DNA of 63,999 nt from a virus (lineage: Duplodnaviria; Caudoviricetes): positions 1-63,999 of IMG/VR virus record IMGVR_UViG_3300037882_001089; one strand, written 5' to 3'. Below are positions 1-63,076 of the stretch, piece by piece; the first letter of the stretch is position 1; each line of letters begins with the position of its first letter. Below the pieces are notes generated by a model, which did no database searches, was not told the origin of the DNA, and was given only the letters and a program-made list of their open reading frames with translations. A program made the translations under genes and the position numbers.

Positions 1-2
1 AA

Positions 3-161
3 TCAAACTATGTCAAATTAAAGACTAAAGATTTGGTTGAATTTGGTTATACTTCACTTACTGAAAAAGAAGTCGAAGAGCAAGTCGAAAAGATATTAGC
101 AAAGGATAATGATTTGTCAGTAATAGGTATGTTTTGTAAAGACGATTTGGATGTCAAATAG
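3..161 (+). CDS. 3' end of a small hypothetical protein (probable cassette gene, cut by the window start)
   Basis: Open frame SNYVKLKTKDLVEFGY...DDLDVK ends in TAG at 159-161, 9 nt before the TAAC of the first hairpin. Confidence 0.6.
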   Translation, partial: SNYVKLKTKDLVEFGYTSLTEKEVEEQVEKILAKDNDLSVIGMFCKDDLDVK

Positions 162-166
162 CATTG

Positions 167-302
167 CACCTAACGGTTTCTGGCTTTGCGAAGGCAAGGG
201 ATTAGAAGCACTAAACTTTAAAATTAGCACAAATGATTGATAGAGATACAAATGTTGAAATAACCGATGAAGCCCTTGCTTTTGCAAAACCAGTGTTAGG
301 CG
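167..302 (+). mobile_element. attC-like recombination hairpin A
   Basis: CACCTAAC-ggttt-CTGGcTTTGCgAAgGCAAGGG ... CCCTTGCtTTtGCAAAaCCAG-t-GTTAGGCG: imperfect inverted repeat with TAAC/GTTA ends and an asymmetric spacer. Confidence 0.85.
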
Positions 303-1111
303 AAGGGGCGGTTATTGGATGGTGGTCTGGCGGTATTACTTCGGCTGTTGCTTGTCGTTTAGCGATTGAGAAATATCCGAATGTAAGATTAGTTTATATT
401 GAAACAGGAAGCCACCACCCCGATACAATTAGATTTAAAACTGATTGTGAAAAATGGTATGGACAAGAAATTGAAACCATACAAAATAAGAAGTATGAAG
501 ACCACTTAGACGTTGTTTTATCAACTCGCTATGTAAATGGTGCAGGAGGTGCAAGATGCACAAAGGAACTTAAAAAAAATGTTCGTTTTGACTTTGAGAA
601 ATCAACTAAAATAGCTGCACAAGTTTGGGGCTATGAATTTGAAGCAAGTGAAATAAACAGAGCAATTAGAACGCAAGAACAATATGCCTATACAAATCCG
701 CTATTCCCTTTGATTGAAAACAAGCTATCAAAGAATGAATGTGCAGGGATTTTAGCAGGTGCAGGAATTGAAATACCAACTATGTATAAACTTGGTTACA
801 ATAACAACAACTGCATTGGATGTGTAAAAGGAGGTGCAGGATATTGGAATAAAATAAGGGTTGATTTTCCCGAAATATTTAAGCAAATGGCAGAAGCCGA
901 ACGAGAAGTTGGTGCAAGTTGCTTAAAGAATAAAGAAGGAAAAATTTATTTAGATGAATTAGACCCGAAAGCAGGAAACCCAACCGATTTAGTAACTGGT
1001 GAATGTGGCATATTTTGTCAAGTTGAATTTGCTCATATTATGTCAAAACGAACAAATGATATTTTAGAAGGCAAAGTTTCAATTTACGATGAACGTAGCC
1101 CTTTCGCCTAA
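233..1111 (+). CDS. PAPS-reductase/PP-loop family protein with Cys cluster (cassette gene)
   Basis: WWSGGITS PP-loop, RCTKELKK, NNNCIGCVKGG and ECGIFC motifs; the stop codon lies inside GCCTAAC. Confidence 0.75.
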   Translation: MIDRDTNVEITDEALAFAKPVLGEGAVIGWWSGGITSAVACRLAIEKYPNVRLVYIETGSHHPDTIRFKTDCEKWYGQEIETIQNKKYEDHLDVVLSTRYVNGAGGARCTKELKKNVRFDFEKSTKIAAQVWGYEFEASEINRAIRTQEQYAYTNPLFPLIENKLSKNECAGILAGAGIEIPTMYKLGYNNNNCIGCVKGGAGYWNKIRVDFPEIFKQMAEAEREVGASCLKNKEGKIYLDELDPKAGNPTDLVTGECGIFCQVEFAHIMSKRTNDILEGKVSIYDERSPFA

Positions 1112-1237
1112 CGTTATTCAGCTTGTTGCAGGCGTGGAATAGAAGCGTAAACTTTCGGATTAGAAACAAAGATTAAAAAACACGCAAGCGATTGGATAAA
1201 GCCTAAAGCCACGCTTGCTACAAACTGATGTTAGGCG
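1105..1237 (+). mobile_element. attC-like recombination hairpin B
   Basis: CGCCTAAC-gttat-TCAGcTTGTtGCAgGCGTGG ... CCACGCtTGCtACAAaCTGA-t-GTTAGGCG. Confidence 0.85.
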
Positions 1238-1540
1238 ATGTATTTTATTATGAAAACAGTTGGTACTATTGGACACGTTGACCACGGAAAAACAACATTA
1301 ACTGCTGCAATAAAAAGTGTTTTAGAAAAAGAAAAACATAGTGTTTATCAAGATGTTATTGAAGAAGTTTTCGAGTATAAAAATCCTTATGCTTTTTTAA
1401 ATGAAAAGCCAGCACCAAGTAAATCAAGATTAAAAAAATGTGAAAAAGGATTACACGAATTTTCAGAAACAGGATTTTCAGAAAATAATATTAAAAAATG
1501 GGCTTGTATTCATTGCGGAACGTTTATGCACAATCGTTAG
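1238..1540 (+). CDS. small protein with an EF-Tu-like G1/P-loop N-terminus and a C-terminal Cys/His zinc-binding motif (cassette gene)
   Basis: [18 protein letters not shown] matches the EF-Tu signature; CEKGLH...CIHC at the C-terminus; only 100 aa (start may be 1250). Confidence 0.7.
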
Positions 1541-1541
1541 C

Positions 1542-1606
1542 AATATATCGCCTAACATATATATGTAATCATACTTTTTAAACGCCAATAAACACAATAC
1601 TTAACG
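1542..1606 (+). mobile_element. putative attI-like site at the array end next to the recombinase
   Basis: The last cassette ends AATATATCGCCTAAC (1542-1556) and is followed by non-hairpin sequence, then the recombinase ATG. Confidence 0.5.
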
Positions 1607-2434
1607 ATGAAAACGTCTGAACACAAACAAAGTTTCATTCAGGAAATGAAACGTAGAGGATATAGAGAAAATAGCATTTTAAATTACAGTAGTTGTATTG
1701 ATGTTTTTTTATCTAAAATAAATAAAGACCATCCTAAAAATATTAACGAACAGAATATTAAGGACTTTTTGACTAATTGCATAAAAGCAAACACTCAAAG
1801 AAATTACCATTCAGCTATAAAATTGTTTTACGATATTTGTTTAAACCAAAAACAAAAATTTAAAAATATCCCTTATACACGAATTGATAAAAATATACCA
1901 ATTATTCTTTCGGTTGATGAGATTCAAAAAATGTTTGATGTATGTGAGAATAAAAAACACCGACTTATTTTAGCCCTACTATACTCTTGTTCTCTACGTG
2001 TTTCAGAATTAATAAATTTGAAGTGGGAAAATGTTGACAGAAGTAGAATGATTATTTATATTTTAAATGCAAAAGGAGGACGAGATAGACAGGTCGGATT
2101 AAACGATACATTAATTAAACTAATGGAAGAATATTACAAATTATTTAAAACTAAAACTTTTATTTTTAGCGGGCAATTTGGAGAACAATATTCCGACAGG
2201 AGCGTAGGACAAGTTGTGAAACAATTAGCAAATAAAGCAGGCATTAATAAAAGAGTTTACACGCATTTAATCAGACATTGTTCGGCTAGTCATTTACTAG
2301 ATAATGGGGTGGATATTAATTTAATTCAACGGATTTTAGGGCATAGTTCTGTTAAAACTACTTCTATATATTTACACACATCTCATGCGACAATTTCAAA
2401 AATACAATCTCCTTTAAATGCTATTAAATTATGA
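1607..2434 (+). CDS. tyrosine recombinase (XerD/integron-integrase-like)
   Basis: SAM-like N-terminus (RRGYRENSILNYSSCI); catalytic motifs LRVSEL, KGGRDR, HLIRH and LGHSSVKTTSIY. Confidence 0.92.
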   Translation: MKTSEHKQSFIQEMKRRGYRENSILNYSSCIDVFLSKINKDHPKNINEQNIKDFLTNCIKANTQRNYHSAIKLFYDICLNQKQKFKNIPYTRIDKNIPIILSVDEIQKMFDVCENKKHRLILALLYSCSLRVSELINLKWENVDRSRMIIYILNAKGGRDRQVGLNDTLIKLMEEYYKLFKTKTFIFSGQFGEQYSDRSVGQVVKQLANKAGINKRVYTHLIRHCSASHLLDNGVDINLIQRILGHSSVKTTSIYLHTSHATISKIQSPLNAIKL

Positions 2435-2456
2435 ATTTTAATTAAATTATTAGATT

Positions 2457-2828
2457 ATGGAAAAGATATTAATAGAGATTTGTAAATTTTACAATACAGA
2501 TAGTAGATTTATATTTCGGGAAAGCAGAAAAATGAAAGTAGTTTATTTGCGACACTTGTTTTTCTATTTGGTTAAATCTACTTATAGAGAGATTCCTTAT
2601 AGAGAGATTCAGGAGTTTTGCTTGAATTATAAAAGATTTAAAGTTGACCACGCAACAATATTACACGCAAAAAAACAAATTCAAAACAGAATTGATACAG
2701 ATGCAGATGTTCGGAGTGACGTACAATACCTTTTAATGAATATTAAAGACGCTCATACAAAATCTATTGTTATTTCAAATGTAGATTTAGTTAGTTATTG
2801 TGATATTCCAAGATTTATTAACAGTTAA
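2457..2828 (+). CDS. DnaA C-terminal-like helix-turn-helix protein
   Basis: SRKMKVVYLRHLFFYL...DHATILHA resembles DnaA domain IV. Confidence 0.6.
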   Translation: MEKILIEICKFYNTDSRFIFRESRKMKVVYLRHLFFYLVKSTYREIPYREIQEFCLNYKRFKVDHATILHAKKQIQNRIDTDADVRSDVQYLLMNIKDAHTKSIVISNVDLVSYCDIPRFINS

Positions 2829-2838
2829 TTTAAAAAAA

Positions 2839-3327
2839 ATGAAAACATTATTATTATTATTATTTCCGATATTAGTTTCGGCACAATCAGTAAATTTATC
2901 TGAAAACACATCTTATGGTGGTAATTGTGGGAATGGATTTACAACAGAAGTAAATATAAACGGTGATTTAAACTTAAATAATTATATTTTAACTCTACGA
3001 AATGTTAACCTAAATATCTCAGGAAACTTAAATGGTTATGGAGAGATAAATCGTTGCGGTAACTATGACCACTCAACAATATGTGTTTTTGGAGTTATCC
3101 AAAATACAGTAAATTTAAATGGGATTTCTTGTAACAATTTAGATATAAAAGAATTTGATGCTAATAAAGATTTAGGGCATAAATTCACGGTTTATAATAT
3201 TTTAGGACAAGTTATATTAGAAGGCTTTACGACAAAGGAGTTCTTTTATATTTTACCAAAACAAACAATTCTAATTATTAAAATAGAAGGTTTTAAAACA
3301 ATTAAATTATATAAAAACTTAAATTAA
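2839..3327 (+). CDS. secreted protein with signal peptide and T9SS CTD-like C-terminus
   Basis: MKTLLLLLFPILVSAQ signal peptide; C-terminal TVYNILGQVI...LIIKIEGFKTIKLYK. Confidence 0.55.
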   Translation: MKTLLLLLFPILVSAQSVNLSENTSYGGNCGNGFTTEVNINGDLNLNNYILTLRNVNLNISGNLNGYGEINRCGNYDHSTICVFGVIQNTVNLNGISCNNLDIKEFDANKDLGHKFTVYNILGQVILEGFTTKEFFYILPKQTILIIKIEGFKTIKLYKNLN

Positions 3328-3328
3328 A

Positions 3329-3838
3329 ATGAAAAAAATATTATTGTTAGGAGTTTTACTTATCGGGATGACAGGTAACTCACAAGGAATTAGATTTGGA
3401 GAGAAAGAAAACTTTACCGCTTCTTTGTCGGTTGACCCGATGGCGACTATTAAAGAGAAATCTCCTAACGTAGTGGCTGAAATTGAATTAGTTTCCTATT
3501 GGAAGTATGTAAAGGCAAGTGTACAAGTACTTCCTAGTTTACAAGGAGGATATTTAGATTTAGCTGGAGGACTTGGTTTAAATTTAACAAGTGGTTATTT
3601 TGAACAAATGCGATATTATGGAGGAATTAGATTAGGTGTTATTAAACGTGGATTTACAGAAGATGAAACATATACTTATCCTCTTTTTGGTTTTGAAGGA
3701 GGTATAAACTACAATGTAACCGATAAGTTTTTTATAGGTATAAGAGCCACTTCTGATTATCGAAGCGATTTTAAATACAGCGGAGCAAAACCCTTTTATC
3801 GTAATTCAGGATTTGTTAAATTAGGATTTAATTTTTAG
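3329..3838 (+). CDS. outer-membrane beta-barrel protein
   Basis: Signal peptide, alternating amphipathic strands, C-terminal GFVKLGFNF Bam signal. Confidence 0.7.
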   Translation: MKKILLLGVLLIGMTGNSQGIRFGEKENFTASLSVDPMATIKEKSPNVVAEIELVSYWKYVKASVQVLPSLQGGYLDLAGGLGLNLTSGYFEQMRYYGGIRLGVIKRGFTEDETYTYPLFGFEGGINYNVTDKFFIGIRATSDYRSDFKYSGAKPFYRNSGFVKLGFNF

Positions 3839-3841
3839 ATT

Positions 3842-4240
3842 ATGACAAAAAAAGAAAAAATAAAAGAATCTTATGGCGAATATTGGGAATTAATACAGCC
3901 TGATGTTGATGAAAATGGGTGGGTTGCACATTGGAATCATTTTTTAAGAACTGAAATCCAAAATCATTACGAATTAGAAACAATGACTTATGGCGTTGGG
4001 ACTTGTTGGCGACCAAAATCAATTCAAGGCATAGAAAACAACAATGGGTGGGTTAAAATAAACATTTCACTTGACTTACCAACAAAAAATTTAGATTGTT
4101 GGTTTGAAAATAAAGACGGAATGTTTAGAGGTTATTATAATAGAAAGCAAAATTTCTTTTACGATGAAAAATATGAGGTTATAAGACATGAAGTAACCCA
4201 TTATCAAGAAATATTAAAACCTAAACCCTCAATATTTTAA
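3842..4240 (+). CDS. hypothetical phage protein (DUF551-like C-terminus)
   Basis: NNNGWVKI...LP...VTHYQEI pattern. Confidence 0.5.
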   Translation: MTKKEKIKESYGEYWELIQPDVDENGWVAHWNHFLRTEIQNHYELETMTYGVGTCWRPKSIQGIENNNGWVKINISLDLPTKNLDCWFENKDGMFRGYYNRKQNFFYDEKYEVIRHEVTHYQEILKPKPSIF

Positions 4241-4243
4241 ACG

Positions 4244-4369
4244 ATGAAACTATCCGAAGAAGAAAGAGAGGAAATGAGAATACTTTTCAGACGAGCAAGT
4301 ATTTTTATATCAATAGCATCATTTTTTATTATTGGGGCTATTTTATACATCATTAAAACTAAGCAATAA
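4244..4369 (+). CDS. small membrane protein (41 aa)
   Basis: MKLSEEEREEMRILFRRASIFISIASFFIIGAILYIIKTKQ fills the gap between neighbouring genes. Confidence 0.5.
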   Translation: MKLSEEEREEMRILFRRASIFISIASFFIIGAILYIIKTKQ

Positions 4370-5714: not shown

Positions 5715-6395
5715 ATGGAAAACAACAATAATGAATTAGCATTAATAAGCGCAGATGATTTAAGCTTAGTAGAACAAAATAGCTTAAATGCAAATCAATT
5801 AGCTTTGATTTTAAAGAAAACTCCTAAACAATATGTGCATAATAGACCCGCTAAAGGTGGCGGAACTTGGGAATATGTAACTGGTGGGTATGTAAAAAAG
5901 TGCCTTAATCTTATGTTTGGTTGGGATTGGAGTTTTGAGGTAATTGATGAAAAGATACTTTTTGGAGAAGCTATTGTAAAAGGAAAACTAACTTGTAGGA
6001 GTAATGGTAAGGAGATTGTAAAGATGCAGTTTGGGAACAAGGATATTATGTATAAAAAACAAACTCCAGAAGAAATTAGCAAAGGATTAGAGAGAGTTCC
6101 TTTATCTATCGGGAACGACCTAAAATCCGCAACAACTGACTGCCTTAAAAAATGCGCTTCGGAAATAGGTATTGCTTCTGATATTTATAATAAAGAAGAT
6201 TTTAGAGAAGTGAGAGTTGAAACAGAAAAAGATATTGAACCTATTTTTGAAAAGCTAAAAACTCTATTTGAAAATAAAAAAGATGTAATTCCATCCATTG
6301 ACTTTAAAGAAATTAACGATGCTATTGAATCAGATTTTAATGTTAAGAAAGTTAAAGCATATAAAAGATTCATTGACTATTTAGAAAAACTATAA
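5715..6395 (+). CDS. Rad52/Sak-like ssDNA annealing protein
   Basis: RPAKGGGTWEYV...LNLMFGWDWSFEV...KSATTDCLKKCASEIGIASDIY. Confidence 0.8.
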   Translation: MENNNNELALISADDLSLVEQNSLNANQLALILKKTPKQYVHNRPAKGGGTWEYVTGGYVKKCLNLMFGWDWSFEVIDEKILFGEAIVKGKLTCRSNGKEIVKMQFGNKDIMYKKQTPEEISKGLERVPLSIGNDLKSATTDCLKKCASEIGIASDIYNKEDFREVRVETEKDIEPIFEKLKTLFENKKDVIPSIDFKEINDAIESDFNVKKVKAYKRFIDYLEKL

Positions 6396-6396
6396 A

Positions 6397-7275
6397 ATGG
6401 AAGCAGACAAAGTACTATTCAATGCGAGTTCCGCAGGAGCTTTACTAACAGAAAAACAAGGTGCTAAATTTACTGATGTTCAAAAACTAAGAATATTAGA
6501 ATTAGAAAAAGAACGTGATACTGGTTTAAATGCAAATGGTAACAAGGTAAAATGGGAAGGCACAAAGAAGCCTGATGAGTTAGCAGAACTAATAGCAAAA
6601 AGAGATGCTCCACCTGAGTTATCCGATACCGCAAAAGCATTAGTTCGTAAAGTTTGGCTTAGAAATGAAAAGGGAATCTACTCTAATATTAAGTCAAAGT
6701 TTTTAGATAAGGGTATAATGAAAGAAGAAGATTCTATTTCATTAGTTTCAGAAGTTGAAGGAGTTTTGTACGTTAAAAACGAAGAGCGAATTAAGAACGA
6801 ATATTTTTCGGGTGAATGTGATATTGTTAAGGATTTTGAAAATAAAAGATTGATTATTGATACTAAAACCAGTTGGTCAGCAGAAACTTTTATGGACGCA
6901 AAACCTACTTTAGATTACGAGATTCAAGGTCAAATCTATATGGAGTTATGGGATGCAGACGAATTTGAATTAAAATTTGTACTTGTCGATGCACCCGATA
7001 ATTTAGTTCAGCGTGAGAAAGATTTAGCGAAGTGGAAGTATTTTTCAGGAGATATGACCGACGAAGAATTAAATCACATGGAAGAACTTATGTCGCATAT
7101 CTATGAACAGATAGAAAGGAATATGATATATTCTAATAACGAAAGAATTACAAAAGAAGAATGTATTAAAACTTTTTACTTCAAAAGAGATAAGGAGATT
7201 TACGCAAAACTCGTAGAAAAAGTAAAATTAGCAAGACAGTATTACAAAACTCTATCACTAAATCATAAACATTAA
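6397..7275 (+). CDS. YqaJ/lambda-exonuclease-like PD-(D/E)xK nuclease
   Basis: KGIMKEEDSI, SGECDI, IIDTKTSW, YEIQGQIYMELW; paired with the annealase. Confidence 0.75.
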   Translation: MEADKVLFNASSAGALLTEKQGAKFTDVQKLRILELEKERDTGLNANGNKVKWEGTKKPDELAELIAKRDAPPELSDTAKALVRKVWLRNEKGIYSNIKSKFLDKGIMKEEDSISLVSEVEGVLYVKNEERIKNEYFSGECDIVKDFENKRLIIDTKTSWSAETFMDAKPTLDYEIQGQIYMELWDADEFELKFVLVDAPDNLVQREKDLAKWKYFSGDMTDEELNHMEELMSHIYEQIERNMIYSNNERITKEECIKTFYFKRDKEIYAKLVEKVKLARQYYKTLSLNHKH

Positions 7276-12806: not shown

Positions 12807-12992
12807 ATGAACAGATACGACAAACAAACCGAATTTGCACAAACTTTAGGATTTAAAACTCCCGCTTTAGCAATTATTTCATTAGGGAAATATAAGTTTA
12901 TGGATGATTTTAAATTGTGGGAACTAAAAAATTATGCACTAACGGTTTTGCGTATATACGAGGTACGCCAAACGATAAATTTCAAATTATAA
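12807..12992 (+). CDS. hypothetical protein whose C-terminus is supplied by hairpin C
   Basis: The ORF reads through TAAC at 12940-12943 into the hairpin. Confidence 0.45.
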   Translation: MNRYDKQTEFAQTLGFKTPALAIISLGKYKFMDDFKLWELKNYALTVLRIYEVRQTINFKL

Positions 12993-13036
12993 ACAAATGC
13001 TTGTAGGCGTATCTTGTATATACGCTGTTATGCACC
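12936..13036 (+). mobile_element. attC-like recombination hairpin C
   Basis: CACTAAC-ggtttt-GCGTATATACgAGgTACGCC ... GGCGTAtCTtGTATATACGC-t-GTTATGC. Confidence 0.85.
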
Positions 13037-13051
13037 GTAATTATTATTAAA

Positions 13052-13255
13052 ATGGACGAAAGAAAACAAAAATTAATAGATGCTTTGAAAGTTGAAAGAG
13101 GATATTTTGAAGCAAGAGGACAAAGCACATTAGAACATGATTTTGCAATTGAATACCTTGAAACTGGTAGAACTGATGAAGACACCGATGAATTTGAATT
13201 GCTTGATGCGGTTATGAATGACTTTGATATGGTTTGCTCCGATTATGGTGCATAA
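13052..13255 (+). CDS. small acidic protein (cassette gene)
   Basis: Bounded by GTTATGCACCGTAAT and ATTATGGTGCATAAC; the stop codon is inside TAAC. Confidence 0.7.
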   Translation: MDERKQKLIDALKVERGYFEARGQSTLEHDFAIEYLETGRTDEDTDEFELLDAVMNDFDMVCSDYGA

Positions 13256-13381
13256 CGTTCTCGCGCTACACTCAGTAGCGTGCCGAAATGCCAAATTATC
13301 GGAGTTTGCCCGAAAAATGCAAGCACAAAACAATAATAACCAAAGCCAAATGAAGCTATTGATTGTAGTAGCTGTTATATT
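13250..13381 (+). mobile_element. attC-like recombination hairpin D
   Basis: GCATAAC-gttctc-GCgCTACAcTCAgTAGC ... GCTAtTGAtTGTAGtaGC-t-GTTATAT. Confidence 0.75.
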
Positions 13382-13410
13382 CTCGGCTTTTTTACTAACA
13401 AATTAAACAA

Positions 13411-13650
13411 ATGATTATGAGCAAACAAAAAGGATTTTGCGATGTATGCGGAACTGAAATCGAAGTTAATATGTGTTGTAGCGGTCACGAATGCGGATGT
13501 ATGGGGTTGCCAACTGAACCGCCTATCTGTTCTGAAAAATGTTATGATACATTTATGAGCCAAGAATATCAAGATGATAAAAAAGCTAAAAGTGAATTTG
13601 TATTCTTTAATCCAAAAAATAAAATAAATGACAATAGATACATTAAATAA
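13411..13650 (+). CDS. Cys-rich small protein (cassette gene)
   Basis: CDVC...CCSGHECGCMG...CSEKC. Confidence 0.65.
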   Translation: MIMSKQKGFCDVCGTEIEVNMCCSGHECGCMGLPTEPPICSEKCYDTFMSQEYQDDKKAKSEFVFFNPKNKINDNRYIK

Positions 13651-13828
13651 AGCTAACGCTATTAAAAAAACTATTGATAAATTAGAGATTGAACACTCTA
13701 AAATATCCAAGTTTTACAGCAAAAAAGAACCCTTAACAAAGGAAGAACTTGAAGAATTATTTCAAATCGCAATGTTAAACACCACTTATGCGACAAGTAG
13801 ATTTAAAGACGAACTAAAAGCGTTATAA
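13628..13828 (+). CDS. hypothetical protein (second gene of the same cassette)
   Basis: Lies before the cassette end GAATATAAC at 13871-13879. Confidence 0.6.
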   Translation: MTIDTLNKANAIKKTIDKLEIEHSKISKFYSKKEPLTKEELEELFQIAMLNTTYATSRFKDELKAL

Positions 13829-13926
13829 AAATAGCCAGAGTTACTTTCACCAGAAAGTTGCTCGAAGCTGGAATATAACTCGTCGCTTTACGTAACTAAT
13901 GTGGTAAAACTAATAAAACAACGCTT

Positions 13927-14202
13927 ATGAACACTATAATTATTGAGCCACATTTTACCACATTGCATTTTTTAAAAGGATTTGAATATAAAGGTAGAAT
14001 GTTTGGTTTTAAAAATAAGAAACTATACAGACTTCCTTATATTTATAAGCACAGATGTTACCCTCTTAAAGAAATAGTTTTTAGAGATAATCATTTTAGA
14101 GTTTGTAGGGATAAATTAAGTTGGAATGTTATTTCTCCAAAAATAGAAAATATTGATATTATTGTTAAATTACCTGAAAAACATTCAGACATACCATTTT
14201 AA
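13927..14202 (+). CDS. hypothetical protein
   Basis: ORF ending DIPF. Confidence 0.5.
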   Translation: MNTIIIEPHFTTLHFLKGFEYKGRMFGFKNKKLYRLPYIYKHRCYPLKEIVFRDNHFRVCRDKLSWNVISPKIENIDIIVKLPEKHSDIPF

Positions 14203-17198: not shown

Positions 17199-17232
17199 AA
17201 AAAGCCTCGACTAATAATCGAGGCTTTTTTTT
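17199..17232. terminator. bidirectional intrinsic terminator
   Basis: AAAAAGCCTCGA-ctaataa-TCGAGGCTTTTTTT between convergent genes. Confidence 0.85.
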
Positions 17233-20200
17233 ATTTCAAATCACTTTCCTTTATTCCAAATTCCTTTTTTTGGAGTTCAATAGTTTTCTTCATTTCCAAA
17301 ACTCCTTTACGAATCTCAGTAGTATCAACATCTTTGAAATCTAACTTACTCCCATCGGGGAAATAATAAGGAAGACCTTTTTTATTTTGCTCTATTAAGT
17401 ATTTAAAATCATTCATTTGGGTAATTAGAGTTTTGATAGCTTTAATTTTCCCTTCTCTTTCTTTTTCTTCAATAGGGGTTAAGCCTTTCTCCATTCTTTC
17501 CTTTTGCTTTTTCTCTACTTTCTTCAACGCTTCTTTTTCTTCGTCTTTTAGTTTTAGCGTTAAATCTCCTTTCCAATTATCATTTATAGCTTTAGCAGTT
17601 TTTATAAAACCTTTATCCATAAACGCTTGTCCAAATCCTTCGGGTTTAGAGTAATAAACTGGTTCACGACCTTGTAAACCTACGTTTAAATCATAAACAT
17701 CCCTTAACGCTCTCCAAGAAAAAGGAGCTGATAACGAGCTTCCTAATAATTTTCCTGATTCAGTAGAGAATTTTTCTCCATCTCCAATAGCTTTAACAGT
17801 TTTTAGAATGTTATCTTGATAATCTACTTTCATTCCAAATTGGTCAACAAAAAACTTACCTAAATCATCTTTTTCTGTCATTAAATAAGTAACAAATGTA
17901 GGTGTCATTTTTTTAATATACTTTTTAGCCCATTTGTTTTCTTCTTTTTCCGACCAAACTCTTAATTTATCAATAGCATCTTCTTCATCATCTCCATTAG
18001 TAGTTAATGCCATTGCTAATGTTCCACTAATCATTAATCCACTTAATGTTCTCATTGCGGAGGCTTGTGTGTTTCTTCTTCTGTATAAAGATTCTTTATA
18101 ATTATTTCTACCACTTACTGTTGATAAATCTAATTCATTTCCTTTACCTACCATTAAATTATAAACTAAATTTAAAGGGACTCCTACTTTTTCGGATTGA
18201 AGTACAACCCAATTTGAACCACCGCCTAAGAATGGAGCAATAATTCCTTTATAACCAGTACCTAAAATAATCCAAAATGAAGCCTTACCATATTGTTCTT
18301 CTTTTATCGCTTTTTCTGTTTCGTGGGAAATCATTGCATTTATTAGATTTACACCTTTTGTAACCATATTGTTAGCTTCGTGTCCAATACTTAATCCTGC
18401 GGATTTATATGAAGCGTCAAATGCTTGTTCTATTTGTTCCATAGTCATACGACCATCACTTGCTAAATTTTGTTTAACAAGTCCCATAGCAAATCTATGA
18501 ATAGCATCTTTGTTGTCTTTTAGTACTTTTTCTCCTTCTTGTTGGGAGTTTATTTCATCAATTATGCTTTTTGCAGTAACCAATGCTTTTTCAAAAATAT
18601 CCCCTGTTAATTGTTCGTTTAAATATTGTTGAGCTTCATCTTTTGTCATTCCGCCATTAGGGTTCTTCTCTAAAGGTAAAGTTAATGTATCAATAATATT
18701 TTCTATAAAAATGGAAGATGTTAAAGATGCTTTAGTTTGGCTATCTTGTGCCTCTAAAAAGGCACGTAATGTAACCACAGAAACTACTATATTAGCAATT
18801 TCGCTATCTACTTTACCATTAAGCCAATCCTCAAAACGAGTATGAGAAATTAAACTTGAACCAGTTTCCCCATAAAATAATCCCACTTGTTTTACAATAT
18901 CATTATAAACAGCATCTTTATCTTTTTGTATTTGTTTTCTTAATTCGGGAGTTACTTTCCCACTTGCTTGAATTTTTTGATAAAGCATTTGTAGTTTACC
19001 TGATGTGTAGTTTTCAAGCAATGTTGCAATTCCTCCTAACATCGCTTTTAAAGATAATCCTTGATAGTCTTTAAATAAACTAATTAATCTAAATCCTTTT
19101 CCTCCACTAATGGTACTTACTTCCGATATTAGTTTTTTAATGTTATGACTAATTTGTGAAGCCTGACTCTCCATCGCAACTTTTGACAAAGGTTTCCCAT
19201 TAGGGTCTTTGTAGTTATACAATTCCGATAATGCTCTTACAAGTTTTTCAAGTTTAACAAATGATTCTTGTTTTAAACTACTCAAACCAATTACTTTATT
19301 TAAAACTTCTGAATATTTACCTTCATTATTTTCAAATAATCCAAAATTATAAAGTTCGGCTAATGTTTTAGATTCAGCCTTTCTATATACTCTTTCTTTG
19401 ATTAATCCCTTTCTCTCTAACTCCTTAATCCCTTTTTCAATTACTGATGCGCTTAATTCCTTAAACTCCTCAATAATATCAGCAGTCATTGATTCTATTT
19501 CTTTATCCGAGTATTTACCTTGCTCTTTTAAAGTATCAATAATGGTTTGCTCAATTCCTTTTTTACCCGCTAATTTCTTCCAATCGAAGCGTTTTACTTT
19601 CTCTCCTTTATATGTTACTTCACGATAAAATCCTGCATCTATTAATGCTTGTTTTACAATTGATTTTACAGATGTATCAATAGGTTTTTCATCTGTAACA
19701 AATCCTTCTTTTTTAAAATGGTCTGTAATATCTTTTCTAAATTTAGATTCATTACTCCATTCTTTACCATAAAGTTCTTTTATTTTTTTTACTCCTTTAT
19801 CTAAAGCATCAGCAATATTTAATCCACCTTTGATAGCATTCTCAATTGTTGTAATTCCAGCATCGATAATTGCAATAGGAATACCCGAAGTAGCATCATA
19901 AGTATTACTTCTTAAAGTAGATTTTAATTTAGATAATGAGTTTAGTATTTTATCTGCTTTCTTTCTTCTTGTTTCAGATAATGATTTATAATAATTATCA
20001 ATTTCTTTTTGAACTCCCTCGTCAATTAGTTTCTGAATCTCCTTATCGCTTTTAATAAAACCATCACGAATATCATCTTCTTCATTCATTTTATCAATAG
20101 AAGTTTCTACAATCTTCTCAACTTCTGATTTAGCCTCTTGTTGTTTTGAAGTGTATAGGTCATTTCTATAAGTTTCAATATCAATTCCTAATCTAATAGC

Positions 20201-23200
20201 ATTATTTAACGCTCTTAATCTACCAGTTCTAATTGTCAATGAACCAATACGTAAGTTTTCTTGGGAACGTGCCGTAACAAATTCTTGCAGTTTCTTTTCG
20301 CCTACATTAGTCGGGTCATTCTTAACTCGAATATCCATTTCATTTTCTAAAGTAGCTAAAATTATCCCTTTTTCAAGTCCATTTAAATCAGACGCTTCAA
20401 TAAAATCTAATAACTCCTCTACATATTTATCACCAAATTTCTCTTTAGCATCATTAACAATATCTATTCCGTGTTGTCTTAGTAAATCATCTCCTTTTAC
20501 ATCATATTCTTGGGCGTTAGTAGGCGTACCATATTCTCTTTCGATAGTTTCCCCACTTAAATATTTATTAATTACCCCGCTTTCAGGAATAGCTTTTATT
20601 TTATCTCTTAATTTAGTAGATTGGCTATCTGAAATAGGTTTTTTCTTAACCACTTCTTCTTTTTTAGTTTCTTTTGGCTCTTCAAGAGTTTTAAAGTGTT
20701 TTTCCGCCACTTCTTTCTCTGTAAAGTCAAAATCATAGCCTTTCTTATTTAAGTGGCTTATAACTTGTCTAATCGCTTCTTGAACTTCAATTCCTGCTCC
20801 AATTAATTGTTTTGCGCTATTAGCTACAAAATCTATTAAATCATCTTGTGATAATCCTTGTTTTTTTGAGCCTTTTGTATGTTCAGGAGTTTTAGGCAAT
20901 AAGTCTTTTAAAGCATTTGCAAGTTCATCGATATTTACATTTACTGCTTGTTTTCTTTCGGCAACTCTTTCTTTTCTTGATTTTTCTGATGTTGTAATAG
21001 TTTGCTTATCATCAATTCTCTTTGAAATTTGCTCAGTTTCTTTGTTTCCATATTGTTGTTTTTCAAATTCTTTATAATCTTCGTAGTATTCTATTAGTTC
21101 ATTATCTGTCATTTGGTCAAAAAATCCAAATCCTGCATCTTTTCTGTTTTTTTGCTCAATTGCTTTTAATAAAAACTCATTGCTCGCATTAAGCCCAGTA
21201 AGAGAAGTGAATTTTTCTTTTAATGCAGTAATAGCATTGCTTTTCTTGATTTGTTCTTCTGTAAGATTATCTTTTGCTTTTGCTTTATAAGATTTTAGCC
21301 CATCGGGATTTTCAGATATAAAATCAGCAATGTCATTAGGGGTAATTTCAACGCCTCCAATTTCAGATAATTCTTGTGCTAAATCATCAATCTCTCTACC
21401 GCTTTCGTTATCAAAATATGATTTTGTCTTATTGGTTTTGTTGTTTTTATCTCCAAATCTATCAAATCCACTTTCTTTAATTGGAGATAGCCCATCTGCT
21501 ATTATTTGTTTTTTATAATCTACTTTCTCCTCGTCATTCATAGAAGAAACATCTTCTATCTCTGCATAATGGATTGCTTCTGCAATTTCGGCGGGGTTAT
21601 TAGATTTTTTGGCTACTTCATTTTCCCAATCTTGTTGCTCAAAATCAGGATTATCAATAGCTCTTTCCCCAATAGTCAAATCGGTGTTATCAGCGTGTTT
21701 TCTTAAAACTGCTCGCTCAGTAGGTTTAGAAACTACTTCGCCTTTAGAATTTGTAACTTCTAATCTACCATTCTTATTCTCAACATTAAACGCTTGCCCT
21801 TTCTCCGAAACTTTATATTTCTTTACTTCAACATCTGTTTTACCTTCTCCAATTGTAGCGGAGGGCTGTACTGCTTCAACTTGTTGTTGCTGTAAATCTG
21901 CGTTATCTCCAATTGAAACATCTCCATTAGGTACAATATCTCCTTTCTGTTTTGCTTCATCTCTTTTGGCTTTAATTTCAGAATTAATGTTGCTATATTT
22001 TTCAGCTATTACTTTATTCAAGATTTTTTCTTCTTCCGACATAGCACTTTCTATATCAGGATTAGAGTACAAATCTTTCTTAATTTTAACTAATTCATCA
22101 ACACTCTTTTCGTTATAATCATTTTCTAATTTTTGAATAGGTGTTATTTCCTTTTGTTCTGAATTTGTTGGTTCTTGTACTTCGGCTTTTGGTTCAACTT
22201 TTGATTTTGCTTCTGCATTTGCACTTTCAATTTCTGCATCTTTCTGTTGTTTTAAATAGATTTTATTAGCTCTTTCGGTTATTTGCTCGTTGTCAATTTT
22301 AATATTTTTAGTTCCATCAGGATTTAACTCTTGAATTAATTGATTTGAGGCTTCTCTCTTAATTTTGTCTTGCTCTTTTAACGGCAAAGATTCTACGGGA
22401 GAAGTATTCCCATTAATAATATTTGTGTTAGTATTTTGTAAATCTAAATACTCTGATTTTAATCCTTGTAATAATATCTTTTTAGAAGCATCATCTAATT
22501 CAGTATCATCTTTAATTTCAATAGATTCTCTTTGTAATTCAGATAATCTCTTACTGTTGTTGTAAACAATCTCTATTTGATTTAAGGGCATTTTGCCTAA
22601 TTTATCAATAGTTTTATTTATAATACTAGAACTTTCTTTTGTAGCTAAGTCTATTTGCTCTTTGACAACTTTTTTAGTAGTTTCAGATATATTTACATCT
22701 TCTAACTTATCTAAAAGAGCAGTTATTTTTTTAGCATTTGCGTCTAATTGTCTTGATTCAGCTTTATCAGAAAAACTCTTAACTGCTGATAAAGCAACAT
22801 GAGGCATTGCTCCAACACTTCCTATCATTCCAGTAAGTAAGGCGGTATCTTTTAATGTTTTTATACTGTTATCAAAATACCCAACATTTTCTTCTCCTTG
22901 AATATCTTTTTTAACTACATTTTGAACTACATTATTTATTAACTCGGTACTTACTTCTTTTTTAGTATCTCTTACAATATTTTTAGCAATAGATTCAGAA
23001 GTATTTTTTATAGCAGTTTCAGCTAATTCTTTTGAAGTAGCTTCTTTCATTGCTGATTTCCAAATATTAGCTGAACCTCTTAATGTTTTAATAGTAGGTA
23101 GTTCCGAAAATATCGCTTCTGATAGACCACTAACGAATGGAGCTAACGCCATTTGCTGAGGCGTGTAGTTAGTTTTGCCACTTTTGTTAGATTGTGTCAT

Positions 23201-24547
23201 CTCAGAATATTTACTCCCCGAAGCCTCCAATCCCAATGCACCAATCCCAATACCACCTGCGCCAATTTGAGCAAAAGTACCTGCCTGATTTGCCAACAAA
23301 TCTGTTGAATATTGAAAGAAATTTTTAAATGAAACATCTTCACTATCAGGTCTAAAATCTTCTTTCTTTTTTTGTAAAAACTCTCTTGCTTTTTGTATTC
23401 CTTCTTGTTTATACTCCTCTTTAGCTCCTAAATAAGTATTAGCAATATAATTAGCTCCTGAGTATAAATCTACTCCTGCATTTGCTAAAGATAAAGATGC
23501 TCTAGCTCCGAAGTTTTCTAAAGCATTATAATTTCTTTTAAAAGCATTAAATTCATCTTTTGCAGTTCCTAAATCAGTATTATCTTGTTTTGTAAATGCT
23601 TTATAATCTTCTTTTAAATATTTCCCTACTTTTTGAATTTCACTTTGAGCAAATAGTTTATCTTCTTGTGTGATATTTGGATTTTCTAAATCATCTTGTA
23701 ACTCTTGAAAGTACTTCTCATTTAGGCTAATTCTATTGGTAATATCTTTTTTCTTTTTTGATAAAGTTGTAAATCTATCTTCCGCATCAATTTTAAGTGC
23801 TGATTTAGTTTTAGAATCTACTGAACCTAAATAATCATTAATTTTTTGTTGCTTCTTTTCTAAATTAGTTTTATCTAAATAGATTTTGTCAGCCAAACTA
23901 TTAACATCCTCAGATTTAATATTTTTTACGCCTTGTTCTCTTAATTGTATTTTAGCTTGTTTTTTTTCATCGAATAAAGGGTCTTTCTCCAATATTAATT
24001 CTTTTGGAGTAGTTTGCTCATCTGTCATACTAAAAACAAATTCACTTGCTTTATTTACAACATCTTTCCCAATAGCTTTAACATTATTCCAAACTCCTTC
24101 TTGTTCTTTTTTAGACTTTAAATCATTTTCAGATTCAATTCTTTCTTGTTCATTTAGCTTAGTAGCTTCCCTCCACTTCATAACCTCTTGTCTTTGAAAC
24201 TCCTTACGCTTTGCTACATTTTCAGGTTTATTAATAGCCTCTTGTAGTGTTTTATTAATTTTAGGTAATGGTTGTTTAGGCGTAGTAGTTTTTACGCCAT
24301 CAGGAAACATTTTAAAGTCTTTGCTAATTTTCTCTACACCATCCGAAGAACCAACTTTTGTTCCCGAAACCGATTTTTGTTTTGGAGAAATAGGTTCGGA
24401 AGCATCTTTTTTTTTTACAGGAACTTCATTACCGAATTTAGCGGTAAAATCTCTTGCTAATAATTCAATTTCTTCATTACTACCTCCATTAGCTAATAAT
24501 TCTTTAATATTAGCGTCTAATTGTTCTCTTCTTTTAGGTTGTAACAT
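17231..24547 (-). CDS. giant virion (internal/ejection) protein, 2438 aa
   Basis: Size, helical and charged composition, last position in a podovirus-like structural operon. Confidence 0.6.
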   Translation of the reverse strand: MLQPKRREQLDANIKELLANGGSNEEIELLARDFTAKFGNEVPVKKKDASEPISPKQKSVSGTKVGSSDGVEKISKDFKMFPDGVKTTTPKQPLPKINKTLQEAINKPENVAKRKEFQRQEVMKWREATKLNEQERIESENDLKSKKEQEGVWNNVKAIGKDVVNKASEFVFSMTDEQTTPKELILEKDPLFDEKKQAKIQLREQGVKNIKSEDVNSLADKIYLDKTNLEKKQQKINDYLGSVDSKTKSALKIDAEDRFTTLSKKKKDITNRISLNEKYFQELQDDLENPNITQEDKLFAQSEIQKVGKYLKEDYKAFTKQDNTDLGTAKDEFNAFKRNYNALENFGARASLSLANAGVDLYSGANYIANTYLGAKEEYKQEGIQKAREFLQKKKEDFRPDSEDVSFKNFFQYSTDLLANQAGTFAQIGAGGIGIGALGLEASGSKYSEMTQSNKSGKTNYTPQQMALAPFVSGLSEAIFSELPTIKTLRGSANIWKSAMKEATSKELAETAIKNTSESIAKNIVRDTKKEVSTELINNVVQNVVKKDIQGEENVGYFDNSIKTLKDTALLTGMIGSVGAMPHVALSAVKSFSDKAESRQLDANAKKITALLDKLEDVNISETTKKVVKEQIDLATKESSSIINKTIDKLGKMPLNQIEIVYNNSKRLSELQRESIEIKDDTELDDASKKILLQGLKSEYLDLQNTNTNIINGNTSPVESLPLKEQDKIKREASNQLIQELNPDGTKNIKIDNEQITERANKIYLKQQKDAEIESANAEAKSKVEPKAEVQEPTNSEQKEITPIQKLENDYNEKSVDELVKIKKDLYSNPDIESAMSEEEKILNKVIAEKYSNINSEIKAKRDEAKQKGDIVPNGDVSIGDNADLQQQQVEAVQPSATIGEGKTDVEVKKYKVSEKGQAFNVENKNGRLEVTNSKGEVVSKPTERAVLRKHADNTDLTIGERAIDNPDFEQQDWENEVAKKSNNPAEIAEAIHYAEIEDVSSMNDEEKVDYKKQIIADGLSPIKESGFDRFGDKNNKTNKTKSYFDNESGREIDDLAQELSEIGGVEITPNDIADFISENPDGLKSYKAKAKDNLTEEQIKKSNAITALKEKFTSLTGLNASNEFLLKAIEQKNRKDAGFGFFDQMTDNELIEYYEDYKEFEKQQYGNKETEQISKRIDDKQTITTSEKSRKERVAERKQAVNVNIDELANALKDLLPKTPEHTKGSKKQGLSQDDLIDFVANSAKQLIGAGIEVQEAIRQVISHLNKKGYDFDFTEKEVAEKHFKTLEEPKETKKEEVVKKKPISDSQSTKLRDKIKAIPESGVINKYLSGETIEREYGTPTNAQEYDVKGDDLLRQHGIDIVNDAKEKFGDKYVEELLDFIEASDLNGLEKGIILATLENEMDIRVKNDPTNVGEKKLQEFVTARSQENLRIGSLTIRTGRLRALNNAIRLGIDIETYRNDLYTSKQQEAKSEVEKIVETSIDKMNEEDDIRDGFIKSDKEIQKLIDEGVQKEIDNYYKSLSETRRKKADKILNSLSKLKSTLRSNTYDATSGIPIAIIDAGITTIENAIKGGLNIADALDKGVKKIKELYGKEWSNESKFRKDITDHFKKEGFVTDEKPIDTSVKSIVKQALIDAGFYREVTYKGEKVKRFDWKKLAGKKGIEQTIIDTLKEQGKYSDKEIESMTADIIEEFKELSASVIEKGIKELERKGLIKERVYRKAESKTLAELYNFGLFENNEGKYSEVLNKVIGLSSLKQESFVKLEKLVRALSELYNYKDPNGKPLSKVAMESQASQISHNIKKLISEVSTISGGKGFRLISLFKDYQGLSLKAMLGGIATLLENYTSGKLQMLYQKIQASGKVTPELRKQIQKDKDAVYNDIVKQVGLFYGETGSSLISHTRFEDWLNGKVDSEIANIVVSVVTLRAFLEAQDSQTKASLTSSIFIENIIDTLTLPLEKNPNGGMTKDEAQQYLNEQLTGDIFEKALVTAKSIIDEINSQQEGEKVLKDNKDAIHRFAMGLVKQNLASDGRMTMEQIEQAFDASYKSAGLSIGHEANNMVTKGVNLINAMISHETEKAIKEEQYGKASFWIILGTGYKGIIAPFLGGGSNWVVLQSEKVGVPLNLVYNLMVGKGNELDLSTVSGRNNYKESLYRRRNTQASAMRTLSGLMISGTLAMALTTNGDDEEDAIDKLRVWSEKEENKWAKKYIKKMTPTFVTYLMTEKDDLGKFFVDQFGMKVDYQDNILKTVKAIGDGEKFSTESGKLLGSSLSAPFSWRALRDVYDLNVGLQGREPVYYSKPEGFGQAFMDKGFIKTAKAINDNWKGDLTLKLKDEEKEALKKVEKKQKERMEKGLTPIEEKEREGKIKAIKTLITQMNDFKYLIEQNKKGLPYYFPDGSKLDFKDVDTTEIRKGVLEMKKTIELQKKEFGIKESDLK

Positions 24548-33287: not shown

Positions 33288-33364
33288 CTAGTTACTAGGG
33301 CAGATGGATGAACCCGCCTCACTTGGAATGAGGAGATTCGCTGATTCGATTTCAGCTAACTAGA
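33288..33364 (+). tRNA. tRNA-Pro(TGG)
   Basis: CTAGTTA/TAACTAG acceptor stem, CCTCA-CTTGGAA-TGAGG anticodon arm, GCTGA-TTCGATT-TCAGC T arm. Confidence 0.85.
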
Positions 33365-33424
33365 CGAGCAGACTGTTACTAATTCATAGGACGTGGTGTA
33401 TAATACGAACGTAGAATTAGATAT

Positions 33425-33496
33425 TAGAGTATCGTATAACGGTTATTACATCTGACTTTGACTCAGATAATGGAAGTTCGATTCTTTCTACTCTAA
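33425..33496 (+). tRNA. tRNA-Gln(TTG)
   Basis: TAGAGTA/TACTCTA, TCTGA-CTTTGAC-TCAGA, GGAAG-TTCGATT-CTTTC. Confidence 0.88.
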
Positions 33497-33498
33497 CT

Positions 33499-33573
33499 GT
33501 GTTGTTAGCATAATTGGAATAATGTGCCTAACTGTGAATTAGGAGGATAGGGTTCGAGTCCCTGCAACACCCA
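33499..33573 (+). tRNA. tRNA-His(GTG)
   Basis: GTGTTG/CAACAC, CCTAA-CTGTGAA-TTAGG, AGGG-TTCGAGT-CCCT, ends CCA. Confidence 0.85.
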
Positions 33574-33576
33574 AAT

Positions 33577-33650
33577 GCCTCGTTACGCTAAATGGAAGTG
33601 CGGTCACACTTAGAATGTGATGGTTGTAGATTCGACTTCTACACGAGGTA
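33577..33650 (+). tRNA. tRNA-Leu(TAG) with short variable loop
   Basis: GCCTCGT/ACGAGGT, TCACA-CTTAGAA-TGTGA, 5-nt variable loop, GTAGA-TTCGACT-TCTAC. Confidence 0.82.
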
Positions 33651-33656
33651 CTAAAT

Positions 33657-33728
33657 TTTCTTATAGTTTAATGGATAAAACATCAGATTACGACTCTGAT
33701 AATCTCCGTTCGAGTCGGGGTAAGAAAA
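33657..33728 (+). tRNA. tRNA-Arg(ACG)
   Basis: TTTCTTA/TAAGAAA, TCAGA-TTACGAC-TCTGA, CTCCG-TTCGAGT-CGGGG. Confidence 0.88.
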
Positions 33729-33730
33729 CT

Positions 33731-53181: not shown

Positions 53182-53242
53182 TACCTTTTTAATAAGGATA
53201 ATTTTTACATTTGTGATACAAATTAATTTAATTAAATATTTT

Positions 53243-58645: not shown

Positions 58646-58839
58646 AGGATAAAACTCCTATATTCTAACCAAGCGGGTTCATACGAACCTCCGAACTAAT
58701 CCCTCTGCCAATCTAACTCCCGAATCATCCCAAACCAACCAAAACTGAGTACACGAAAGAAAGACGACAATCTTAATTAATGTCCGTTATTAAACGCAAT
58801 CCTTGTCATATTGCCCGAAATAACAATCATTACCAAAAC

Positions 58840-63056: not shown

Positions 63057-63076
63057 CCGATTGCACTTGCGCATTT

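Follow-up and report, generated by a model that had tools for sequence, protein, structure and literature searches.

Hairpin-bounded gene cassettes next to a small tyrosine recombinase: a proposed integron-like gene-capture system in a tailed phage

Integrons are regarded as bacterial platforms, and an integron cassette consists of a promoterless open reading frame (ORF) followed by its own attC site and is expressed from a shared promoter on the attI side. Elements of the CTX-phi type integrate as a folded single-strand hairpin via the host XerCD. In the pdif modules of Acinetobacter plasmids and in the R64 shufflon, duplex recombinase sites bracket gene modules, and shufflons invert them. 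The nearest published phage analogue in the literature covered here are the promoter-stem-loop (PeSL) cassettes of T4-type phages; the available parts of two reports describe stem-loops that flank small accessory ORFs in variable regions, together with gene shuffling (PMC2839356, PMC4122927). Here, we analysed the IMG/VR virus record IMGVR_UViG_3300037882_001089, a stretch of 63,999 bases that is called the window throughout. At its left end, it contains an array of hairpins and ORFs next to the gene for a tyrosine recombinase, which we interpret, with a probability of about 0.8, as a phage-borne, integron-like gene-capture system. The literature search retrieved no phage-encoded integron and no account of these hairpins.

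The locus is similar to an integron in several respects. A tyrosine recombinase is encoded beside a primary site without a hairpin, the cassettes mostly contain a single ORF, and their sites are imperfect palindromes of about 77–128 nt with an AAC/GTT core. As in integrons, the two ends of a cassette would pair only when it is excised, and the nesting of the arrays fits cassettes being inserted at the primary site. Cassettes appear to move as units with exchange at the core triplet, judging from the comparison of one cassette in eight contexts and from array junctions in cultured phages of the Freya group. The differences are that the phage enzyme lacks the insertion typical of IntI and branches outside IntI1/IntI2, that the phage ORFs are sense on the folded strand, often start in the hairpin and point towards the recombinase gene, that the spacer has 3–5 nt on one side versus 1 nt on the other and is closed by an invariant G.T pair, and that the carrier is a phage and the cargo is counter-defence, not resistance or defence. 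As with CTX-phi, an enzyme of the Xer family would act on a site folded from one phage DNA strand, but there the enzymes belong to the host and the whole phage integrates at a single site, whereas here the enzyme is phage-encoded, the sites are many, and single genes are mobilised.

The record is linear and has an estimated completeness of 85%. It represents a tailed phage, because virion structural proteins, a tail fibre and replication genes are encoded; a DnaB-like helicase, a helicase loader, an exonuclease, GroEL and six tRNA genes are among its genes. The array region (164–1606) comprises hairpins A and B, two cassettes and a conserved half-site, and is followed by the recombinase gene (Table 1). 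It is truncated at its far (left) end, because the contig begins within the array. The remnant of the upstream cassette has the commonest cassette end of the family, i.e. a stop codon, about 10 nt and AAC. The ATG of ORF1 lies within the loop of hairpin A, and its stop codon is the TAA of the following TAAC.

Table 1. Positions of the array components and of the further family hairpins in the window
Feature	Position	Strand	Details
Upstream cassette, 3′ end	1–175	+	Truncated by the start of the contig; open frame up to 161; arm preceding the AAC of hairpin A at 164–171
Hairpin A, attC-like structured site	164–305	+	TAAC 171–174, GTTA 295–298; covariance-model match 105.6 bits, E 2.5e-19
Cassette 1 (hairpin A + ORF1)	172–1112	+	Bounded by AAC 172–174 and AAC 1110–1112
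ORF1, 292 aa, PAPS-reductase / DndC-SspD-like	233–1111	+	PF01507 1.4e-9; phrog_424 1.9e-52; PADLOC SspD 9.5e-11
Hairpin B	1102–1240	+	TAAC 1109–1112, GTTA 1230–1233; covariance-model match 99.5 bits
ORF2 of cassette 2, 100 aa	1238–1540	+	N-terminal copy of an EF-Tu P-loop segment, Cys-rich C-terminus; PF00009 9.2e-7
attI-like half-site and leader	1546–1606	+	Arm + TAAC 1546–1556, spacer 1557–1560, conserved ATATGTAA 1561–1568; no hairpin, no fold
Tyrosine recombinase, 275 aa, Xer/IntI-like, without IntI insertion	1607–2434	+	PF00589 and PF13495
Hairpin C	12933–13037	+	69.7 bits; fold z −4.8; starts a second array, no recombinase adjoining
ORF of cassette C, 67 aa	13052–13255	+	Stop codon is the TAA of the next TAAC; flanks 7/8 complementary
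Hairpin D, weaker family member	13246–13384	+	57.6 bits
Cassette D body	13385–13879	+	ORFs 13411–13650 and 13628–13828; ends at TAAC 13876–13879, then non-hairpin DNA
Hairpin E, solitary	63074–63171	+	39.9 bits, E 4.6e-6, outside the training set; fold z −3.5; ORF 63209–63526 follows

A preliminary description of this DNA had reported that hairpins A and B share TAAC...GTTA ends and an asymmetric spacer, have unrelated loops and enclose units with ends complementary at 14 of 15 positions, and that the recombinase ORF starts 50 nt past the last TAAC. Sequence inspection and folding bear out all of these features. About 5 nt are unpaired after TAAC and 1 nt before GTTA, the loops are unrelated, positions 295–309 are complementary to 1098–1112 and positions 1230–1244 to 1542–1556 (14/15 each), and the recombinase ORF begins at 1607. 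Folded as single strands, hairpins A and B reach −19.7 and −26.3 kcal/mol on the + strand (z −2.3 and −3.6), and the − strand folds less well (−14.5 and −23.0 kcal/mol). The 9-mer TCGCCTAAC has exactly four copies in the 64 kb, at 295–303 (−), 1104–1112 (+), 1230–1238 (−) and 1548–1556 (+). Simple counts turned out to be unsuitable as tests: GCCTAAC is found five times versus 3.5 times expected, with 28 of 100 shuffled sequences reaching five, and the count of near-matches to the 9-mer is not significant either. What carries the signal is the clustering and the alternating orientation.

The comparison with related contigs revealed which unit moves. Hairpin A together with ORF1 recurs in seven viral loci (L041, L042, L043, L044, L045, which equals L046, L047 and L068) with 75–94% nucleotide identity, always inside hairpin arrays. 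When these loci and the window were compared pairwise with flanks of 2.5 kb, hairpin A plus ORF1 was the only common stretch of at least 100 nt, the exceptions being a 189-nt match (71%) of L043 with L045/L046 and some short matches with other hairpins. The homology begins at most about 12 nt after the left AAC and ends at window position 1112–1113 in five loci; in three loci, it extends slightly into a similar next hairpin. Up to the left AAC there are seven distinct flanks, and from the right AAC onward there are eight distinct sequences. The PAPS reductases of two further loci without hairpins (L048 and L049, 70–72% identical) match only positions 311–1089 of the window, i.e. without leader and arms. 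In addition, metagenome contigs from four runs (four studies) part from the window at 170/172, 1107, 1113/1115 and 1240.

On the basis of these comparisons, the mobile unit is a hairpin together with the ORF downstream of it. The units had originally been described as having complementary ends, which holds. The opposite polarity, with a cassette composed of an ORF and the hairpin downstream, was rejected: the half-site closes the array at the recombinase side, and the ORF1 homologues keep the upstream hairpin, not the downstream one. The comparisons support the AAC located, on the + strand, at the 5′ foot of the hairpins as the probable point of exchange and 1546–1568 as a putative attI-like insertion site. 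The presence of a half-site at the recombinase end and of a full hairpin at the far end fits the insertion of units composed of hairpin and ORF at the half-site. Hairpin types are common to unrelated cassettes; likewise, site types are shared among unrelated cassettes in chromosomal integrons.

Exchange at AAC predicts a rule for the cassette ends, because both arms would then belong to one cassette and would pair only once it is excised. The 8 nt after a hairpin and the 8 nt before the next AAC were compared for the matches in the window and in 25 loci, with L030 dropped as a duplicate of L029 and two window pairs dropped that are more than 11 kb apart. At least 6 of the 8 positions are complementary in 55 of the 68 adjacent pairs. 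For comparison, the two flanks of one and the same hairpin reach this value in only 3 out of 73 cases; for random pairs, the rate is 3.1%. The usual maximum is 7/8, since the outermost position is T.G. Within the window, the score is 7/8 both from A to B and from C to D, and manual counting gave 7/8 for B to the half-site and 6/8 for D to its own end. Homologues of ORF2 in three loci (L126, L127 and L128) sit behind family hairpins, and their arms differ and co-vary at both ends. As the arms change together at both ends, the pairing is under selection and not a mere historical trace.

One of these loci also contains a mini-cassette without an ORF (L127, about 1812–1845), i.e. the arm after the hairpin, 8 nt, the complement of this arm and the next TAAC. 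In a single contig of run X3, a joint connects 311 with 1095 and perhaps represents an ORF-less cassette of the same kind; it was too weak and was not used.

A scanner that only aligns the arms discriminated poorly (shuffled sequence scores 28–31) and was replaced by a covariance model, R1, which was built from related loci on the alignment of 54 hairpins that the arm-pairing scanner had chosen. R1 has five matches in the window (filters off), 71 in 25 loci and 10 in 10 further loci, i.e. 86 in the window and 35 recombinase loci. All of them are on the recombinase strand, and all matches in the loci lie upstream of the recombinase gene. With filters off, no match was obtained in L015, L021, L023, L033 and L034, and with default filters only, none was obtained in L005, L018 and L032; the sequence upstream is short in L005, L021 and L023 (55–221 nt) as well as in L033 and L034 (<1 kb). 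Rfam contained no family matching the hairpins and gave no attC match.

RNAalifold predicted 16 pairs for the 54 hairpins, with compensatory changes in 14 of them. The fraction of paired cells was 91.4%, a value that is inflated by the selection of the training hairpins for paired arms, compared with 56.1% after shuffling (reached in 0 of 500 shuffles) and 37–43% after sliding. The flanks, the G12.T161 pair and the register were not selected for by the scanner. Both sides have an invariant sequence (left, AACG; right, TGTT), which leads to the G12.T161 pair in all 54 hairpins, and a second G.T pair is present in 52 of the 54. The spacer is asymmetric, with 3–5 nt on the left and 1 nt on the right. 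Over the whole alignment table, 99 G.T cells are opposed to 12 C.A cells, suggesting that the + strand is the folded strand and is under selection to fold.

These results also bear on the nature of the substrate. The same cassettes might be exchanged by a recombinase that acts on double-stranded core sites in direct order, with the hairpin symmetry being a by-product or serving expression. The half-site would suit this explanation as a plain duplex-type site without a fold, and so would an enzyme without the IntI insertion, which goes with single-strand attC recombination according to the available part of one report (PMC4792948). Yet the bias of G.T over C.A cells, the two near-invariant G.T pairs that exist on one strand only, the location of all model matches on one strand and the co-variation of the stems over 16 pairs would be needless for a duplex site, and we regard this explanation as unlikely.

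The hairpins might also be RNA-level elements involved in processing, termination or translation, as in the promoter-stem-loop cassettes of T4-type phages, with the genes being shuffled by homologous recombination. The folded strand is the mRNA strand, on which G.U pairs would be tolerated, 23 of 59 cassette ORFs start in the loop, and one hairpin type precedes unrelated ORFs, all of which would be compatible with such a role. However, the breakpoints lie on a 3-nt core and not in homologous stretches, the hairpins of one array are mostly dissimilar, and the end rule as well as the co-variation across several hundred nucleotides have no RNA rationale. The lack of an Rfam match, the strict linkage of the hairpins to the recombinase gene and the hairpin-less half-site add to this, so that a purely RNA-level role seems highly improbable. 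As far as the two reports cited above describe them, the PeSL cassettes lack a recombinase and a primary site of their own, and homology is considered to drive them, in contrast to breaks on a 3-nt core beside a recombinase gene.

Protein-guided scans of viral contigs yielded eight and then 24 loci with recombinases that are 45–86% identical. The locus with the 86%-identical enzyme (L002) has six hairpins and six ORFs upstream of the recombinase gene, the ORFs are unrelated to those of the window, and the array ends in the same half-site. Here as well, the two ends of a hairpin do not match beyond TAAC/GTTA, and the two ends of each ORF do. A tblastn search with the window ORFs against the loci matched almost nothing besides the recombinase, and an all-against-all comparison of the array DNA showed that the hairpins are the only common stretches. 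A search of a phage collection for distant DNA relatives of the window gave matches only in the PAPS reductase and tuf-like stretches. Related pieces are present in freshwater and wastewater-type metagenomes; with no share above 0.23 in the run labels, the habitat is not narrowed down any further.

In 22 of 23 recombinase loci, a half-site is located 45–50 nt before the recombinase gene. It consists of a variable arm, TAAC, 4–5 nt and ATATGTA, with the consensus TAAC-aTAnt-ATATGTA. We propose that it plays the role of attI, and it is called attI-like on account of its position and the absence of a hairpin.

Several loci have unusual arrangements. In L017, the sequence preceding the half-site has a second copy ahead of the first array hairpin (1–121 and 1711–1831, 100% over 121 nt), and in L029 the corresponding repetition consists of paralogous cassettes of 88–92% identity (1573–3614 and 6004–6949). 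Both repeats suggest that cassettes were duplicated or that the assembly followed a path through an array that is heterogeneous. L025 contains a composite site (4151–4309), in which a full short hairpin directly precedes the right half of a long one that resembles the hairpin of L020 at 2912–3030, as if one site had recombined within the loop of another.

Cultured phages offer a view of the same arrangement in nearly identical genomes. By their recombinases, the nearest isolates are the Polaribacter phages Leef_1 (36.5% identity) and Freya_1–10 (29.5%). Both have small co-directional ORFs upstream of a gene annotated as "integrase", and a half-site of the form arm-AAC-(G/A)CCCCTATA. R1 scores up to 54.6 bits in Leef_1 and up to 46.7 in Freya_10, and 21 of the 22 matches with E ≤ 1 are on the + strand. 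The ten Freya records are 99.4–100% identical in their overlap, range in length from 43,978 to 48,920 bases and represent seven array states, i.e. an empty half-site, three nested fillings, an internal loss, the loss of the proximal cassette and a different proximal cassette. Freya_1 has the empty site, and in Freya_10 4,942 bases with 12 annotated ORFs are inserted exactly between the AAC and the half-site of Freya_1. Freya_2–4, Freya_5 and Freya_9 contain nested subsets, each with its end at the half-site, an internal block is missing from Freya_8, and Freya_6/7 have a proximal stretch of 472 bases that is not present in Freya_10. The junctions were read from the sequence in Freya_1, Freya_5, Freya_6 and Freya_9, and each is exactly arm-AAC followed directly by ACCCC; those of Freya_2–4 and Freya_8 were derived from coordinates and are placed to about 4 nt.

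Array gain and loss exactly at TAAC, which had been suggested as a comparison at the outset, is thus found in the seven viral contigs with cassette 1 and in the ten Freya isolates. The units recurring in viral contigs and the Freya states both agree with the earlier idea of mobile cassettes that are tied to the adjacent recombinase. The GenBank records of Freya_1–4, Freya_8 and Freya_10 are linearised at or just after an array AAC, and the window contig also begins within an array; assemblies may break at arrays through heterogeneous stocks.

The Freya states also help to judge whether the enzyme might merely be a lysogeny integrase, with the half-site as its attP and the hairpins as a separate feature of a neighbouring variable region of morons. 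It is the sole PF00589 gene and the sole tyrosine recombinase in the record, so that it could also, or solely, be the lysogeny integrase of the phage, and a published account took the recombinase homologues of Freya, Leef and Danklef as a sign of temperate potential in the part available (PMC8776804); the words integron, hairpin, cassette, indel, deletion and insertion are absent from that part of its main text. Nevertheless, the half-site shares the AAC core of the hairpin sites, the end rule also holds between it and the last cassette, the Freya array states share one junction at the AAC of the half-site, and hairpins are located solely upstream of the recombinase gene. Moreover, a scan of one genome for each of 185,579 species, based on exact peptide patterns that may miss relatives, found five relatives of the recombinase, all on contigs of metagenome-assembled genomes (MAGs) and none in an isolate genome. 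A role restricted to lysogeny therefore seems improbable. These contigs are labelled Bacteroidota, Parafilimonas, Chitinophaga, Legionella and Woesebacteria, and three of them carry hairpin arrays.

The alternating 9-mers and the position of the recombinase gene at one end would also be expected for a shufflon, in which the recombinase inverts segments between opposed repeats. Such inversions are hardly conceivable here, as no inverted hairpin or cassette ORF was seen, all 86 model matches and all cassette ORFs are on one strand, and variants differ in presence or absence, not in orientation. The pdif modules and the R64 shufflon share short recombinase sites in alternating orientation with the phage arrays, but their sites do not have long co-varying stems.

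Six catalytic residues of the recombinase, R131, K156, H220, R223, H246 and Y255, are invariant across six family members. The lack of the IntI insertion, noted early on, was confirmed in three tests. In an alignment with IntI4 (2a3v), residues 180–200 of the phage enzyme span residues 184–247 of the chain, with chain residues 185–246 being skipped. The integron integrase profile TIGR02249 matches only at profile positions 5–179 and 240–314, with 159 bits versus a cut-off of 265. The identities to IntI1 and IntI2 are 23.9% and 25.7%, respectively. The enzyme also stays below the family cut-offs of the Xer recombinases: the best NCBIfam profile is XerA_Arch with 203 bits (cut-off 220), followed by XerD with 169 (330) and XerC with 153 (335).

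A covariance model and a tree with IntI and XerCD had also been proposed. The model recovers hairpins A to E, and the tree places the recombinase outside IntI1 and IntI2. In this tree of 24 sequences, 19 family members form one clade (98/98), which neighbours a Clostridium plasmid recombinase belonging to the XerA-like family (87/85) and is separate from IntI1+IntI2 (92/53), and the E. coli XerC+XerD split has values of 100/100. As the tree has long branches and only five of its sequences are references, it shows no more than that IntI1/IntI2 do not include the clade. In metagenomes, the protein family has many members, with 2,562 proteins at E ≤ 1e-20. The best 120 clusters are all at least 65% identical and have lengths of 275–279 aa, with the exception of P0031 (242 aa), and those among them that are named are named only "XerD". 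The nearest plasmid homologue (L123, 37%) is encoded on a Clostridium estertheticum plasmid and overlaps the start of an IS91-family transposase gene.

Sequence comparison thus documents the anatomy of the arrays, a conserved fold, the end-pairing rule, the movement of units with breaks at AAC and, for cultured isolates, cassettes gained and lost in a nested fashion at the half-site. Concerning the mechanism, we infer that the adjacent recombinase is the catalyst, the folded + strand its substrate and circles the intermediates. A cassette would be composed of a hairpin and usually one ORF after it, bounded on the coding (+) strand by the AAC at its own foot and the AAC of the next site. The Xer/IntI-like recombinase would exchange strands at or within AAC. 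Recombination of two sites would excise a circular cassette, the two ends of which would pair into an arm of 8–12 bp, and recombination of such a circle with the half-site would insert the cassette beside the recombinase gene. The + strand order of array, core site, attI and integrase would correspond to the bottom strand of a class 1 integron, with the cassette genes being sense here and about four in ten starting in the hairpin loop.

The family extends beyond the array at the left end of the window. The system is not limited to 161–2434, as hairpins C, D and E are found at other places of the genome with no recombinase beside them. Hairpin C is 90% identical to one hairpin in L009. The 9-mer GAATATAAC at 13871–13879 is the reverse complement of the first 9 nt of cassette D. 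Two further candidates were rejected: the sequence at 59237–59353 (16.5 bits, E 0.25) has no fold (z −0.9), and 13869–13990, after the last TAAC of the C–D array, is not a family hairpin. Arrays that end at a TAAC followed by non-hairpin DNA, free of a recombinase gene within 2.5 kb, are found in L042 (from about 3381 on), in L068 (from about 387 on) and in the window (from 13880 on). Such array ends have the appearance of secondary insertion sites and are reminiscent of attC clusters without integrase.

Several observations weigh against the interpretation as an integron-like system. ORF2 homologues keep the ORF and not hairpin B, the counterpart of hairpin C in L009 has different DNA on both sides, and hairpin D folds poorly, its minimum-energy fold not being the long hairpin (z −1.35). 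One locus does not have the half-site consensus (L013), and another has a half-site, yet no hairpin match (L015). The end rule fails in 13 of the 68 pairs; most of the failures have gaps of more than 700 nt, where a hairpin was probably missed, but L022 is a true exception. Catalysis by the recombinase is inferred from comparative data, and the metagenome junctions stem from assembled contigs. The best evidence for exchange comes from the Freya phages, the recombinase of which is just 29.5% identical to that of the window, and the comparisons included no near-identical relative of the window phage.

The cargo had been suspected to consist of accessory, possibly anti-defence genes, and the domain assignments agree with this idea. 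Among 59 cassettes, 23 have an ORF that starts within the hairpin, 14 have a stop codon that is the TAA of TAAC, and many have a stop codon located exactly 11 nt before AAC. Pfam assigned 14 of the 56 cassette ORFs of at least 60 aa to families for DNA modification or counter-defence. Half of these are DNA methyltransferases (four N6_N4 DNA methylases, one C5, one MT-A70 and one D12), and the other seven are one each of Mom, a TET-associated glycosyltransferase (TAGT), the Thoeris inhibitor Tad6, Lar, an RNA ligase, the PAPS reductase and a radical SAM enzyme. Further named ORFs are one DUF4326, one LytTR and the EF-Tu-like ORF, and most others are without a family. PHROGs agrees with the Pfam assignments. 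PADLOC detected only methyltransferase models among the cassette ORFs, plus SspD for ORF1.

ORF2 is unusual in that it combines a near-exact copy of an EF-Tu P-loop segment with a subsequent, unrelated tail that contains two Cys pairs (1250–1540). A search of the ESM Atlas with ORF2 retrieved only short EF-Tu fragments (<0.9). At the nucleotide level, window positions 1259–1311 are at least 90% identical to bacterial tuf contigs in four metagenomes. As an EF-Tu mimic on a mobile cassette, ORF2 could be a decoy for a defence system directed at EF-Tu.

A more far-reaching conclusion seems reasonably probable to us, namely that a distinct integron class resides in Bacteroidota phages. It would be characterised by a small Xer-like integrase that works without the IntI insertion, by folded hairpins of the coding strand that also serve as regions of translation start and by a bank of exchangeable counter-defence genes; it would be active today in cultured Polaribacter phages, and it would be a viral mirror of the chromosomal integrons that bank defence genes. 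This class may be an independent invention or may lie near the root of the integron mechanism. Viruses thus appear to own a gene-capture platform that was previously known only from bacteria. Screens of the IntegronFinder type depend on the IntI insertion, which is absent from the phage enzyme. If our interpretation is true, phages have a dedicated site-specific route of their own to gain, lose and reorder single accessory genes, which would account for part of the hypervariable early regions in environmental phages. The small, delimited cassettes are enriched in methyltransferases, Mom, Tad6 and Lar, and their ORFs without a family are good candidates for new counter-defence genes. The enzymes represent a natural test of whether hairpin recombination truly needs the IntI insertion, and the cultured phage–host pairs with seven natural array states make these claims testable at the bench. 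The "integrase" genes of flavobacterial phages, which are read as a sign of lysogeny in the available part of the account cited above (PMC8776804), would have to be reinterpreted.

Some further features of the window were noted. Just after the recombinase gene, the ORF at 2457–2828, which has a DnaA C-terminal helix-turn-helix, contains a perfect 15-nt tandem duplication at 2581–2610 (two copies of CTTATAGAGAGATTC). Five of the tRNA genes form a cluster at 33288–33729, and a tRNA-Ser gene is located at 58615–58705. The GroEL homologue is encoded at 53213–54832 (phrog_5725, 3.9e-100), and an ORF of 2,438 aa lies on the minus strand at 17231–24547.

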